From assembly GCF_056712565.1 (NCBI RefSeq), contig NZ_CM160072.1: a stretch of 64,000 nucleotides of DNA. One strand, given 5' to 3'. Position numbers and translations under genes: made by a program. Position 1 is the stretch's first letter; every line of letters starts with the position of its first letter. This document shows positions 47,254-52,624 of this stretch, piece after piece. The notes beneath the pieces are model-generated. The model made no database searches, was not told the origin of the DNA, and saw only the letters and a program-made list of their open reading frames with translations.

Positions 47254-48258
47254 TTAGTCGCCGAGAGTTGCTACCATCACCGCTTTAATGGTGTGCATCC
47301 GGTTTTCTGCTTCATCGAAAACAATGGAGTGGGCAGATTCAAAAACCTCATCAGTTACTTCCAGTCCTTTGAGGCCGTAGGCCATCTCGATCTCGCGTCC
47401 TACTGTGGTGTGCTCATTATGGAAGGCGGGCAGGCAGTGCATAAATTTGACTTCAGGGTTACGCGTGGCAGTAATCACCTGTTGATTGATCTGATAAGGT
47501 GTCATAAGACTCACTCGTTCTGCCCAGGCTTCTTTTGGCTCTCCCATCGAAACCCAAACATCCGTATAGAGAAAATCAACGTCGTATACGCCTTCTTCCA
47601 CATCCTCTGTCAGGGTGATTCTCGCCCCAGTCACGCTGGCGATCTCACGGCATTGTGTTACCAGCGCTTCATCTGGCCAGAAAGATTTTGGTGCCACCAG
47701 ACGGATATCCATCCCCATTTTTGCAGCACCAACCATCAGCGAGTTCCCCATGTTATTTCGGGCATCACCAAGATACGCAAAGCTCAGCTCTGGCAGCGTT
47801 TTGCCTGGCGCATGTTCCAGCATGGTCATTAAATCCGCGAGGATCTGTGTCGGGTGAAATTCATTGGTCAGTCCGTTCCATACCGGAACACCAGCGAACT
47901 CACCTAATTCTTCAACGATATTCTGACCATAACCGCGATACTCAATACCGTCATACATGCGTCCGAGTACGCGAGCGGTATCTTTCATTGATTCTTTATG
48001 GCCGATTTGTGAGCCGCTGGGGCCGATGTAAGTCACCTGCGCACCTTGATCAAAGGCCGCGACTTCAAAGGCACAGCGGGTACGGGTAGAGGATTTTTCA
48101 AAAATCAACGCAATGTTTTTACCGACCAGCGTTTGTTTTTCGTTTCCAGATTTCTTGGCGGCTTTAAGATTGATAGCCAAATCAATCAGGTATTGAATCT
48201 CTGCTGGGGTGTAATCAAGCAGCTTAAGAAAATTACGGTTTTTCAGTGAAGTAGCCAT
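47254..48258 (-). CDS. ornithine carbamoyltransferase (ADI-cluster copy, ArgI-like)
   Basis: ORF 47254-48285 trimmed to Met at 48258 preceded by AAGGA; STRTR and HCLP motifs; high similarity to argI product at 51620-52624. Confidence 0.85.
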
Positions 48259-48268
48259 GGGGATGTCC

Positions 48269-49213
48269 TTATAAAAATGGATCAAGCGTGGTTATGGGGG
48301 TATCAAGGCGAATAAGAGTGCCTTTGTCTCCGGCGAGAATTTCCGGACCATCTGCAAGAGAGCCGATCCCTGCAATGCCCCGGCACTGACTAACAAACTT
48401 TGCGCAGGCGGTGACTTTCGGCCCCATAGACCCGGCATCAAACTGCATTTCGTTGAGTAATTCCGGCGTGACCTGGGCCAGCGGGCGTTGGGTTGGCTTG
48501 CCCCAGTCGAGATATACTGCGTCCGCATCAGTGAGGATCAACAAGGCGTCAGCATGGATCTGACTTGCCAGTAGCGCGGCTGAAAGATCTTTGTCGATAA
48601 CCGCTTCAATCCCATGGTATCCATCGGCTTTTTCAACCACCGGAACACCACCGCCACCATTACAGATCACCAGATGATCGTGGGCGATCAGTGTCTGGAT
48701 GGCATCCCGCTCGACGATGCGTTTAGGTTGTGGAGAAGGTACGACCCGGCGGAAAGAGTGACCATCTGCTTTGAAAACCCAGCCTTTTTCTGCCTGTAGT
48801 ACCTGAGTCTGAGCGTGGTCATAAATTGGGCCGATGTACTTAGTTGGGTTACTGAAGGCGGGATCGTTGGCATCCACTTCAACCTGCGTCAGCAGAACGC
48901 TGATTTCACGTTGTGGTAGTTGATTTTTCAGCGCCTGTTGTAGCATGTAGCCGATCATCCCCTGGCTTTCGGCCCCCAGAATGTCGAGTGGATAGGGAGC
49001 GACATGGGCATAGGCGCTATTTTGAAGTGCCAGAAGTCCAACTTGTGGACCATTCCCGTGAACCAGTACAACCCGCCAGTGTTGAGTCAGTTGGGCGATA
49101 GTTTTAGCCGCAAGATCGATATTTTTACGTTGGATTTCTGCTTCGAGTGGTTCGCCTCGTTTAAGCAGGGCATTACCGCCGAGAGCGATAACCAGTGTTG
49201 GTTTGTTTTCCAT
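48269..49213 (-). CDS. carbamate kinase
   Basis: ORF 48269-49237 trimmed to Met at 49213 preceded by AAGGAAG; carbamate kinase-like sequence ([10 protein letters not shown]...). Confidence 0.85.
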
Positions 49214-49223
49214 GATCTCTTCC

Positions 49224-50447
49224 TTAGATACCGTCACGATGCAAAGGGCAACTCATGCAACGTGCGCCGCCACGTCCGCGGCCTAATTCATCACCGGGGA
49301 TGGGTAAAACGGTGATGCCTGCTTTGTCATATTTTTCGTTAGTCCAGATGTTGCGCTCGTAGCCCACTACCACTCCCGGCCGAAGCGTGAGCACATTGTT
49401 AGCGTCATTCCACTGTTCGCGTTCTGCCTCAAAGGCATCACCCCCCGTGGTGATTAAACGTACCTGGTCAATACCGAGGGCTTTTTCGATAGCATGGAGG
49501 AGTGTGCTTTCTTGAGTACGTTTCAGGCCGCCGTGACCGTCAGGTGTTAGCGTCCAGCAATTAACATCCGGGCGCACAACTTCGGGATAAACCGAGAAGG
49601 TGTCGATATCGATATGAGTCATAACGGTGTCAAGATGCATACAGGAGCGGTGTTTAGGCAGCTCAACAGCGATTACCCGTTCAGCCTGACGATGTTTAAA
49701 CAATGCCTGAGCAAGAAACTCGATTCCTTGTGGCGTGGTGCGTTCAGACATGCCGATCAACACGGCCCCCCGACCAATCACCAGCACATCACCACCTTCT
49801 AACGTGGCGTGGTCATAATTAATATTCTCGTCGCCGAAATATTTAATAAATTCGCCGCCAGCAAATTGTGGATGCCAGCGATAAATAGCGCGTAGATTAT
49901 TGGTTTCACGTTGGCGAGCAGGTTTTGCCATTGGATTAATCGATACACCGTTATAAATCCAGCATGAGGTATCACGCGTAAATAAATGATTCGGTAACGG
50001 CTTCATAATGAAATCATTAATATCGTGGGTATCAACCACCATATTTTTAATTGAGGCGGGAATTTCACTATAAGTCAGCCCACCACTTAAATGACGAGCA
50101 AGGTCCCGGTGTGACATCTCTGCAAGCCAGGTGCGAACGTCAGTAGCAAACGTAGGGCCGAGTCGGTAATCTGATATTTGTGTTTCCAGTAACCAGCTTT
50201 TGGCTTCCGGGATATCCAATGTTTGTGTTAGTAAATCAGTGAGTAACAGAACTTCTATCCCTTGCTGGCGCAGCGTATTGGCGAAAATATCATGCTCTTC
50301 ACCTGCCCGCTCAACGGACAATACATCGTCAAATAACAACTCCTGGCAATTGGATGGTGTTAGACGTTTCAGACTGAGATTTGGGCGATGCAACATAACG
50401 CTGCGTAGTTGTCCAATTTCAGAACCAACATAATGCTTTTCCATCAT
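49224..50447 (-). CDS. arginine deiminase
   Basis: 407-aa ORF; amidinotransferase-family sequence with C-terminal catalytic Cys region (RCMSCPL). Confidence 0.85.
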
Positions 50448-50567
50448 TATTCCTTTAACACTTTTTCAAAAATAAAGAGGAGATGGCTGCAAACAAATTA
50501 AATGCTTGTAGTCAGGTCTGTTCAGTAATTTTCAGATGCAATGATTCAGTTTATTTCTTCCAGAAAA

Positions 50568-50583
50568 TGTGACGACTTTCACA
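50568..50583. promoter_or_regulatory. perfect CRP consensus site TGTGA-N6-TCACA upstream of the ADI operon
   Basis: TGTGACGACTTTCACA read directly, about 120-135 bp upstream of the arginine deiminase start. Confidence 0.5.
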
Positions 50584-51121
50584 CCAGTGATGATATTAAT
50601 AATCGCAGTTAATAATATTTGATGCGGTTCTGATAAATGATAAAGAAACAAAATACGATAATGCATTAATACGCAAATATACGCAGAGTTATTCTTCGTT
50701 GTTAATTGATTGTTTTATTTTTCAGGAAATGCCTTTAAGTATAAAGCATTGATATTTATGTATATTTTAATATTCATTGCATATCTATGCGAAAGAATAA
50801 GGTGATTATTTTTCACAGCACTATTTTCACGGGATAACTATGACAGCACGGGCATTAAAAGCTAAGAAAATGAACTGTGATCTGACTGAGAGTTTTCTTT
50901 TAACATATGCAATAACAAGATATTAGGACCAAAATACATAGCTAAGTTATAAGATTTATGCAGCAAAACTGCATACAAAATTACTCCTGCTTAACATCAG
51001 TACAACATCTCCAGCAATAAACATGCGCAAGGGCAAAACCTGATGATTTTTCTATGGTGAGAGGTGGCTTTTTTTCGTATAAGGAAAGAAGTGAAACATT
51101 GTTTTAATAAAGGAAGATATT

Positions 51122-51574
51122 ATGATTGTTGGCAACATCCATCACTTACAATCCTGGCTGCCGGAAGAACTTCGCGAAGCAATTGAGTACATCAAATCAC
51201 ATGTCAGCGATGAGACAGCAAAAGGTAAGCACGCTATTGACGGCGACCGCCTGTTTTATCTGATTTCTGAGGATACGACTGAACCAGGTGAACTGCGTCG
51301 TGCTGAGTATCATGCTCGTTATCTCGATATCCAGATTGTATTAAAAGGGCAGGAAGGGATGACATTTAGCACGCAACCAGCAGGCGTACCAGAGACTGAC
51401 TGGCTGGCAGATAAAGATATTGCTTTTATCGGGCAGGGGATCGATGAAAAAACAGTGATTCTTAATGAAGGGGATTTTGTCGTTTTCTATCCTGGCGAAG
51501 TTCACAAACCGCTTTGTGCGGTGGGAGCCCCCGCTCAGGTACGGAAAGCAGTAGTTAAGCTATTAAAATCGTAA
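51122..51574 (+). CDS. tabA: biofilm-associated protein TabA (YhcH/YjgK/YiaL family)
   Basis: 150-aa ORF. Confidence 0.9.
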
Positions 51575-51583
51575 GTGATCACT

Positions 51584-51613
51584 GCCGGGGGGCGACCTGT
51601 GCCGCCGCCCGGC
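51584..51613. terminator. GC-rich hairpin between convergent tabA and argI
   Basis: GCCGGGGGGCG ... CGCCGCCCGGC stem with one mismatch. Confidence 0.45.
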
Positions 51614-51619
51614 AAAACG

Positions 51620-52624
51620 TTATTTTGCTAATGTAGCGACCATAACAGCTTTTATGGTGTGCATCCGGTTTTCTGCCTGGTCAAAGACAATACTTGCCGG
51701 AGATTCAAAGACTTCATCGGTGACTTCCATTCCACCATACAGACCGAATTCTGCGGCCATTTTTTTACCCAGCGTGGTTTGCTCATCATGAAATGCAGGC
51801 AGACAGTGGAGGAACTTAACCTGCGAATTACCGGTCAGGGCCATCATTTTGCTATTCACCTGATAGTCACGCAGCAGGGCAATACGCTCCGCCCATTTCT
51901 CTTTGGGCTCACCCATCGATACCCAGACATCGGTATAGATAAAGTCTGCACCTTTAACCCCAGAGGCGATATCTTCCGTCAAGGTGATTTTACCCCCGTG
52001 TTTTTGTGCCAGAGCACTGCATTCGGCGACCAGCGCAGCTTCCGGCCAGCATGCCTGTGGCGCGACCAGACGCAAATCCAGACCGGTAAGCGCCGCAGCT
52101 TCGAGCATCGAATTGCCCATGTTGTTACGCGCGTCACCTGCATAGACCAGCGTCATTTCGTTGAATGCTTTGCCGGGCAAATGCTCCTGCATGGTGAGGA
52201 GATCCGCCAGCAGCTGCGTGGGGTGGAACTCATTGGTCAGGCCGTTCCATACTGGCACGCCAGCGTATTCCGCCAGTGTTTCGACAATCTCCTGACCATA
52301 GCCGCGATACTGAATACCGTCATACATGCGACCAAGCACGCGGGCAGTGTCTTTAATCGACTCTTTGTGACCAATCTGGCTGCCGCTTGGGCCGAGATAA
52401 GTAACGCGAGCACCCTGGTCATATGCGGCAACTTCGAAAGAGCATCGGGTACGGGTCGAGTCTTTTTCGAAGATGAGCGCGATGTTTTTGCCAGTGAGTC
52501 TGGCTTCTTCTTTACCGCTTTTCTTATCGGCTTTCAGCTTCGCGGCTAACTGCAACAAGCTGTTGAGTTCAGCTGGCGTGAAATCGAGTAATTTCAGGAA
52601 ATGCTTATGATAAAACCCGGACAT
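51620..52624 (-). CDS. argI: ornithine carbamoyltransferase (anabolic)
   Basis: ORF 51620-52828 trimmed to Met at 52624 ([13 protein letters not shown]); 334 aa; ARG boxes upstream. Confidence 0.9.

Follow-up and report, generated by a model that had tools for sequence, protein, structure and literature searches.

The 64,000-nucleotide window under study, taken from contig NZ_CM160072.1 of RefSeq assembly GCF_056712565.1, contains two genes for ornithine carbamoyltransferase (OTC), both on the minus strand and separated by 3,361 bp: argI (51620-52624), which encodes the anabolic enzyme, and a second gene (47254-48258) inside an arc gene cluster for the arginine deiminase (ADI) pathway. The latter is annotated elsewhere as arcB or argF, and is here called cOTC. 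Positions 45000-52900 of the window are 100% identical to the chromosome of Escherichia coli HS13-1, and to many other strains of the extraintestinal pathogenic E. coli (ExPEC) type, including Nissle 1917, 536 and clone D i14. In the RefSeq annotation of the identical genome both OTC open reading frames (ORFs) encode 334 amino acids, as in the window, and the genes follow in the order pyrI, pyrB, pyrL, an ArgR-like regulator, a YfcC-family transporter, cOTC, arcC and arcA, then a tabA/yjgK-family gene, argI and rraB. The positions, strand and approximately 3.4-kb spacing of the OTC genes given in a first-pass annotation of this DNA agree with ours.

Both products are ornithine carbamoyltransferases (EC 2.1.3.3) by motif content and family score. 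The STRTR, HPTQ, DVWVSMG and HCLP motifs are present in each (STRTR and HPTQ relate to carbamoyl phosphate, and DVWVSMG has the DxxxSMG form of the loop that binds ornithine), cOTC matches the Pfam domains OTCace_N and OTCace, and the scores against TIGR00658 (438.8 for cOTC and 459.8 for ArgI) lie well above the cutoff of 280.85; models for putrescine, N-acetylornithine and aspartate carbamoyltransferases all remained under their cutoffs for both proteins. At a finer level, the two fall into different curated NCBIfam subfamilies: the ArgI subfamily model NF009213 (PRK12562; cutoff 559) is passed by ArgI at 770.8 and narrowly missed by cOTC at 556.1, and NF003286 (cutoff 515) is passed by cOTC at 543.8 and missed by ArgI at 510.2. 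The solved structure that best matches ArgI is E. coli ArgI itself (1akm/1duv, 707 bits).

Aligned by BLASTP, cOTC and ArgI are identical at 224 of 327 positions (69%), with 83% positives, one gap and an E value of 2e-179; over the full proteins the global identity is 67.6%. The near-gapless alignment described in the first-pass annotation is thus borne out, and every long identical peptide run that it quoted is present in the BLASTP alignment, but its estimate of roughly three quarters identity was somewhat high. In DNA, 663 of 1002 positions are identical (66%), corresponding to 75%, 84% and 40% at the first, second and third codon positions, respectively. The longest exact run in the two genes extends for 23 nt and encodes AENRMHTI; the antisense ORFs beginning MHPVFCF and MHPVFCL, to which attention had been drawn, are indeed found, and start alike because they mirror this run as its reverse complement.

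Synonymous sites of the pair are saturated. Where identical residues have degenerate codons, the same codon is used in 43% of cases, where the codon usage of both genes predicts 38%, and the longest run of identical codons is seven (permutation P=0.26). Neither this run-length permutation nor a sliding window of same-codon identity revealed conversion tracts between cOTC and argI. In a survey of 5,426 complete E. coli genomes, 596 carried the transporter and regulator genes, 596 carried arcC and arcA at at least 95% identity, and 596 had 80% or more of the entire 7.9-kb region as a single piece. A deletion between the OTC genes would leave the transporter and regulator alone, and in all of the 596 genomes yfcC and the argR-like gene were accompanied by the whole cluster; instability of the locus is therefore unsupported. 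The pair lacks the properties of recombination-competent direct repeats and, at 66% DNA identity, would not provide substrates for homologous recombination. The proposal that these direct repeats mediate deletion or gene conversion is accordingly not supported (66% identity, a longest run of 23 nt, no codon excess, and 0/596 deletion derivatives), and the suggestion that repeat recombination makes the locus unstable can be withdrawn.

Relatives were collected by scanning with cOTC one genome per GTDB species (at least 80 loci, from the best 600 stretches), a set in which Salmonella, other Escherichia species, Yersinia and Pseudomonas genomes are absent, and homologues of the arc genes, pyrB and rraB were mapped in each locus fetched. 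In a 53-sequence alignment, cOTC is 81% identical to the OTC of Aeromonas, 79% to that of Vibrio, 76% to the cOTC of Rosenbergiella, 73% to OTCs of Bacteroidetes, 71% to the Pasteurellaceae OTC, 68% to ArgI and 63% to ArcB of Pseudomonas aeruginosa, and ArgI is 65-67% identical to the enzymes of Vibrio, Aeromonas and Bacteroidetes. The solved structures rank in the same manner, with cOTC scoring 578 bits against the Vibrio vulnificus OTC, 524 against E. coli ArgI and 480 against the P. aeruginosa catabolic OTC, and ArgI scoring 499 and 440 bits against the V. vulnificus and P. aeruginosa enzymes, respectively. An identity of 68-69% is therefore the background level in this very conserved subfamily, in which it is no sign of recent common origin; the 40-50% previously expected of unrelated OTCs is miscalibrated here.

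Between E. coli and Citrobacter, protein identity is 94-95% for PyrB, 90-91% for ArgI, 93% for cOTC and 95% for ArcA, a comparable level for proteins of the flanks and of the islet. As orthologues in different genera are thus far more similar (93% and 90-91%) than the paralogues in a single genome (69%), there has been no concerted evolution. These comparisons bear on the account implied by the first-pass annotation, in which the cluster copy derived fairly recently from argI and the direct repeats still undergo deletion or conversion. The shared orientation, the separation of 3.4 kb, the 69% protein identity, the long peptide runs in common and the single identical 23-nt run are what such an account would lead one to expect. 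Set against them are the saturated synonymous sites, the excess of orthologue (93% and 90%) over paralogue (69%) identity, the 0/596 deletion derivatives, a cOTC sequence that bears none of the derived states specific to ArgI, and the outcome of the trees, in which an exclusive clade of cOTC and ArgI occurred in 0% of bootstraps. We consider a recent derivation extremely improbable.

Trees were built by neighbour-joining, with 300 bootstraps on Kimura distances and, additionally, with 150 bootstraps each on two gamma distances for a thinned taxon set. The ArgI/ArgF enzymes of Enterobacterales formed a group in 98-99% of bootstraps, and joined the Pasteurellaceae OTC in 72-93%. The cOTCs of Enterobacterales, including a plasmid-borne copy, formed another (76-80%), which grouped with Vibrio and Aeromonas enzymes in 43-58%, and with ArgI and Pasteurellaceae in 17-25%. 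Enterobacteriaceae and Erwiniaceae are both represented in the clade of each copy, and the split between the copies therefore predates the divergence of those families.

A separate clade, recovered in 99% of bootstraps, comprises the ArcB enzymes of Pseudomonas, Psychrobacter and Laribacter. Given the position of cOTC in an arc operon, and a glutamate at the site equivalent to P. aeruginosa Glu105, the cluster copy might be supposed to be a Pseudomonas-type catabolic ArcB in the classical sense, brought in by an operon resembling arcDABC. The two were grouped in 0% of bootstraps (0/300 on Kimura distances), however, at 63% identity to P. aeruginosa ArcB, and cOTC lacks the 2-residue insertion carried by the Pseudomonas, Psychrobacter and Laribacter enzymes. 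Furthermore, the genes of the window follow the order arcA-arcC-OTC-transporter, the transporter is of the DcuC/YfcC family and not Pseudomonas ArcD, and Glu105 is the common state of the whole subfamily. An origin of this kind has next to no probability in our judgement, and the first-pass annotation was right to place the cluster copy outside the classical ArcB lineage.

Character states agree in setting ArgI apart. Within the 53-sequence alignment, only ArgI/ArgF have an N-terminal deletion of one residue and an inserted residue in GL-xGGMEV, and glutamine replaces glutamate at the Glu105 position in ArgI/ArgF, the Pasteurellaceae enzyme and V. vulnificus. Glu105 and both of the alternative indel states are common to cOTC and almost every other member of the subfamily. 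ArgI accordingly shows every feature of the ArgI/ArgF subfamily, whereas cOTC lacks the score, the clade membership, both indels and Gln105. A Pseudomonas-type catabolic OTC is further characterised by dodecameric assembly and sigmoidal kinetics towards carbamoyl phosphate, features that block the anabolic direction in vivo; in the P. aeruginosa enzyme, mutant work is reported to show that Glu105 is needed for carbamoyl-phosphate cooperativity. The structures 1dxh and 1ort differ at this position, at which cOTC has Glu and ArgI has Gln; as nearly all subfamily members retain the glutamate, it is not diagnostic. In Tajima relative-rate tests, ArgI had 46 unique changes and cOTC 22 when the outgroup was from Bacteroidetes (p=0.004); with an actinobacterial outgroup the counts were 42 and 18 (p=0.002). 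On all these grounds ArgI is the derived lineage, evolving approximately twice as fast as cOTC, and no gene already resembling ArgI gave rise to cOTC. The description of the pair as closely related, and of the catabolic copy as the descendant of an argI-like gene, is consequently not supported, given the nearer relationship of cOTC to OTCs of Vibrio, Aeromonas and Bacteroidetes, the 0% recovery of an exclusive clade, and the derived state of ArgI. We conclude that the window very probably represents the pyrBI-argI region of an ExPEC-type E. coli with an ADI islet, and that its OTC genes are ancient paralogues which did not originate in a recent local duplication. In the scheme that we favour, cOTC would belong to a slowly evolving, Glu105-type lineage that also takes in Vibrio and Aeromonas OTCs and many arc-cluster OTCs of other phyla, and ArgI to a faster lineage of ArgI, ArgF and Pasteurellaceae enzymes, marked by derived indels and Gln105.

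Gene order in related genomes adds to this history. The arrangement rraB-argI-tabA-arcA-arcC-cOTC-yfcC-argR2-pyrB recurs in Citrobacter and Enterobacter; Superficieibacter has the same order from tabA onward (argI and rraB were not found in the fetched flank), and Rosenbergiella, of the Erwiniaceae, has it without tabA. In Aeromonas the order is arcA-arcC-OTC-yfcC, and in several Vibrio it is yfcC-arcA-arcC-OTC-pyrB. Two further Vibrio loci (L012 and L013) read rraB-arcA-OTC-pyrB and rraB-...-arcA-arcC-OTC-pyrB. One locus, in Vibrio sp. S17 (L010), consists of rraB-OTC-pyrB with no arc genes in the fetched flanks, several other Vibrio loci have OTC-pyrB with arc genes likewise unseen in the fetched flanks, and a single OTC stands between rraB and pyrB in Pantoea (L059). 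Separately, the arc-linked OTCs of Vibrio hepatarius and V. bivalvicida (L017 and L018; 9001-10008) contain a 2-residue insertion, YPQLKDG, resembling the YPNLANG insertion of Pseudomonas/Laribacter ArcB, in proteins that otherwise group with Vibrio OTCs; in each of these species there is also another OTC-pyrB locus, which has no arc genes (L011 and L020).

These arrangements admit a different account of the same old split, in which the duplication took place in situ and its direction was the reverse of that first proposed. A single Glu105-type OTC, perhaps downstream of arcA and arcC, would have stood between rraB and pyrB in the ancestor of Enterobacterales (plus Pasteurellales) and been duplicated in tandem; the copy on the rraB side would have become the faster anabolic argI, with Gln105 and the indels, and the arc-linked copy would have stayed close to the ancestral state. 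The single-OTC loci of Vibrio sp. S17 and Pantoea, the arc-containing versions in other Vibrio, the presence of both Enterobacterales paralogues in the same rraB-pyrB interval, the status of ArgI as the fast branch bearing derived states, and the 17-25% of bootstraps that unite cOTC, ArgI and Pasteurellaceae, are all compatible with such an event. By comparison, the grouping of cOTC with Vibrio and Aeromonas is better supported (43-58%), and quartet-informative sites favour it by 8.6 to 5.0 per quartet, although the long ArgI branch could inflate both figures; the arc proteins and gene order of Aeromonas are also nearer to those of E. coli than the Vibrio ones are, hinting that the arc module has moved between lineages. 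We therefore hold in-situ duplication to be a tentative possibility, and somewhat doubtful.

Several of the same considerations count against our preferred placement of cOTC as an old member of the Vibrio/Aeromonas lineage. The deep nodes are weakly supported, as in the 43-58% for cOTC with Vibrio and Aeromonas; the trees are exclusively neighbour-joining trees on corrected p-distances, in which the long ArgI branch could have been pulled towards the outgroups; and both paralogues lie inside an interval, rraB to pyrB, where some Vibrio, and Pantoea, have just one OTC. Such a location is equally compatible with an old in-situ duplication and with the arrival of cOTC with an arc module. Overall, the synteny would favour a very old duplication in the rraB-pyrB interval, and the tree would weakly favour arrival of cOTC together with the arc genes. 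Moreover, Glu105 is present in Vibrio OTCs that have no arc genes in their fetched flanks and are perhaps anabolic, and is therefore not by itself proof of a catabolic enzyme. Finally, the catabolic role of cOTC, the structure of its operon and its regulation are deduced from genomic context and the literature.

With that proviso, the ancient-paralogue interpretation accommodates a simple division of labour. Immediately upstream of cOTC on the minus strand lie arcC (48269-49213), encoding carbamate kinase (TIGR00746, 381.7 against a cutoff of 358.25), and arcA (49224-50444), encoding arginine deiminase (TIGR01078, 531.2 against 489.1), with RefSeq in agreement on both; the gaps from arcC to arcA and from arcC to cOTC are 10 nt each. 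A YfcC/DcuC-family membrane transporter, 'arcD' in the E. coli and Salmonella literature, is encoded on the same strand at 45794-47197 (Pfam DcuC, PF03606, 385 bits; NCBIfam YfcC model 286, under its cutoff of 500), and a yfcC-type gene also adjoins the OTC in the clusters of Citrobacter, Enterobacter, Aeromonas and Vibrio. The region thus has the composition of an arc cluster, with arcA, arcC and an OTC gene adjacent and co-oriented beside a transporter gene of predicted exchanger role. It is completed by an ArgR-like regulator gene (45190-45678, minus strand; arcR, the orthologue of Salmonella STM4463/rosE; PMC2328253), whose product has the N- and C-terminal Arg_repressor domains of Pfam and scores under the cutoffs of the ArgR equivalog models. 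From the gene set, the spacing and what is reported for Salmonella, Nissle and Vibrio, cOTC is probably co-transcribed with arcA and arcC. Its product would convert citrulline and inorganic phosphate to ornithine and carbamoyl phosphate, the latter feeding carbamate kinase for the production of ATP.

The 677-bp intergenic region 5' of arcA (50445-51121; 31% GC) contains consensus matches to a promoter, at 50705-50676 on the minus strand, and to a CRP-type site, with the perfect consensus TGTGACGACTTTCACA at 50568-50583. An FNR-like match at 50749-50762 is weak, as are ARG-box matches 5' of arcA, and none of these is relied upon. Upstream of argI, by contrast, are tandem ARG boxes (52652-52686), with cores at 52652-52665 and 52673-52686 whose starts are 21 bp apart, one perfect and the other with 2 mismatches. 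This is the established ArgR operator layout of argI. The gene would then be a separate unit for arginine synthesis, repressed by ArgR via the two boxes, and it may be separate regulation, rather than sequence distance, that keeps the two reaction directions apart.

An additional perfect ARG-box-like palindrome, TGAATATATATTCA, lies at 45193-45206, within the last codons of the ArgR-like gene and approximately 40 nt upstream of a pyrLBI promoter-like site. Its K-12 counterpart occupies the same position, where the haplotypes described below start to diverge, with 1 mismatch. The palindrome may be an ArgR-family site which links arginine and pyrimidine control.

Although the two OTC genes give no indication of recombining with one another, argI is itself a mosaic. 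Of its mismatches to K-12, 12 fall within nt 1-462, the first 540 aligned columns being 97.8% identical, and 89 within nt 573-1005, where identity is 80%; in protein, the first 185 residues are 98.9% identical to K-12 ArgI and the remainder 87.9%. A mismatch map and a sliding window against K-12 place the junction within 52052-52163. The other end of the divergent block falls at 45188-45206, the K-12 alignment stopping at 45188, just upstream of the pyrLBI promoter. The flanking genes are nearly identical to those of K-12 (pyrB 98.3%, rraB 97.6%), and where the window has the ADI genes K-12 carries yjgH-bdcA-bdcR-tabA-yjgL. The tabA/yjgK-family gene of the window (51122-51574, plus strand; TIGR00022, 192 bits), whose product belongs to the YhcH/YjgK/YiaL family, is a distinct allele, at 75% nucleotide identity to K-12 tabA. 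The whole stretch that starts upstream of pyrL and runs into the middle of argI exists in E. coli as two deeply diverged haplotypes, an ADI type and a bdcAR/yjgL type. In the survey, tabA and the argI 3' half of the window type were found in exactly 596 genomes, the same number as carry the cluster, and the window-type argI haplotype occurs only in cluster-bearing genomes.

Conversion of the argI 3' half from cOTC or argF was considered as a source of the mosaic and rejected, as that half matches cOTC at 63% and argF at 74% but the argI genes of K-12 and Citrobacter at 78-80%. The argI 3' halves of both E. coli haplotypes and of Citrobacter are about equidistant (78-80%), with no indication of which type is ancestral. 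The recombination that has shaped the locus is allelic, with ADI-type and bdcAR/yjgL-type haplotypes exchanged between lineages; its footprint is the junction in the middle of argI, as a result of which ADI-positive strains have an ArgI that differs in its C-terminal domain.

In sequence types ST95 and ST131, ADI and bdcAR have been described as alternative haplotypes, accompanied by variants of argI, tabA, yjgM and yjgN (PMC8545132; bioRxiv 10.64898/2025.12.08.692488). In ST131, clade B0 has arcA, argF, arcC and yfcC, and clade C has bdcAR, yjgH and yjgN (bioRxiv 10.64898/2025.12.08.692488). Pangenome reports of 'two argI orthologues' are a sight of the mosaic gene. We did not find the position of the junction within argI stated in the accessible literature, and it is a small addition to this known picture.

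As the haplotype junction falls within argI, the window-type ArgI allele is confined to genomes that have the ADI islet. One might go further, and combine both histories: argI would descend, as the derived copy, from an arc-operon-type OTC that underwent tandem duplication at rraB-pyrB in ancient times, the 'catabolic' gene being nearer to the ancestor, and the window-type ArgI allele, which differs in the ornithine-binding half (the alleles are 88% identical in protein), would be linked to the islet through co-adaptation, for example to avoid mixed trimers, rather than by hitch-hiking. We regard this combined account as unlikely.

Further allelic variation was noted around the block. No megablast match to window positions 51100-52070 (tabA and the argI 3' half) was returned for about 709 of the 5,426 genomes, 5,425 of which match the wider region, and a third haplotype at tabA-argI is possible. 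To the right of rraB, yjgN (54075-55262), at approximately 70% DNA identity to K-12 yjgN and in patches only, and the 3' end of yjgM (53379-53900) make up a second strongly diverged allele block; published lists have variants of both genes varying together with the ADI cluster in ST95 and ST131.

A second arc operon occurs on plasmids. About 350 further E. coli records, mostly plasmids (297 plasmid places), contain an arc operon with 77% identity in arcC-arcA to that of the window; in plasmid pWP8-S17-ESBL-12_1 (L082, 2846-8088) it is located between IS1 and IS66 elements. The plasmid OTC is sister to that of Enterobacter cloacae (95% bootstrap), and the cluster DNA is 86.5% identical to the E. 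cloacae chromosome and 73.5% to the window. Being nearer to Enterobacter, it is therefore an independent acquisition, and not a copy of the chromosomal islet.

An Rfam scan of the whole window returned no RNA family matches inside the OTC/arc locus. Elsewhere in the window, at 59623-59817, 10834-10956, 39983-40098, 14324-14503, 23486-23564, 29729-29806 and 58714-58789, the matches were Ysr276, ES239, the Mg riboswitch 5' of mgtA, STnc450 and ES036, and three naRNA4 elements derived from repetitive extragenic palindromes, all of which are ordinary for E. coli.

The arrangement, the islet and its function have already been published, and the locus is an ordinary one; both OTC genes are routinely annotated, and with the islet on record in Salmonella and ExPEC-type E. 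coli the present analysis adds little beyond housekeeping. An arginine deiminase islet, STM4463-STM4467, was reported in 2008 from every sequenced Salmonella and also from uropathogenic E. coli (PMC2328253). In Salmonella it lies next to argI, and consists of STM4463/rosE, the transporter STM4464, the OTC STM4465, the carbamate kinase STM4466 and the deiminase STM4467; compared by that paper's description, the islet of the window has the same gene content with no substantial difference, and is the E. coli orthologue. In strain Nissle 1917, whose genome is a 99.9% match to the tabA-argI segment of the window, the operon arcA-arcC-arcB-arcD-arcR has been deleted and re-expressed, and raises pH via arginine catabolism and affects the gut community (PMC10659395); that work does not address the relationship of arcB to argI.

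Outside Enterobacterales, the closest parallel is arcD/arcACB of Vibrio fluvialis (PMC11172107), which, like the window, has arcA-arcC-OTC, a YfcC-type transporter and an adjacent pyrB, but with the transporter upstream of the arc genes instead of downstream. All Vibrio are reported to have arcA and the OTC, and arcC and arcD to be missing from many (PMC11172107). The OTCs of Vibrio clusters are the closest relatives of cOTC outside Enterobacterales among the matches listed (77-81% identity), and a second, ArgI-type OTC was not found in the fetched Vibrio flanks. The catabolic OTC of the P. aeruginosa arcDABC operon (1dxh, 1ort) shares with cOTC its pathway role, the broad OTC subfamily and the conserved Glu105, but stands in a different clade and carries the 2-residue insertion, in an operon of other gene order whose transporter is named ArcD. 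K-12, with argI and argF, is likewise an E. coli genome with two OTC genes; argF lies in the CP4-6 cryptic prophage beside an IS1 copy, and its product, 88% identical to ArgI and nested in the Enterobacteriaceae ArgI clade, is a true recent paralogue of the ArgI type, whereas cOTC, at 68%, falls outside that clade.

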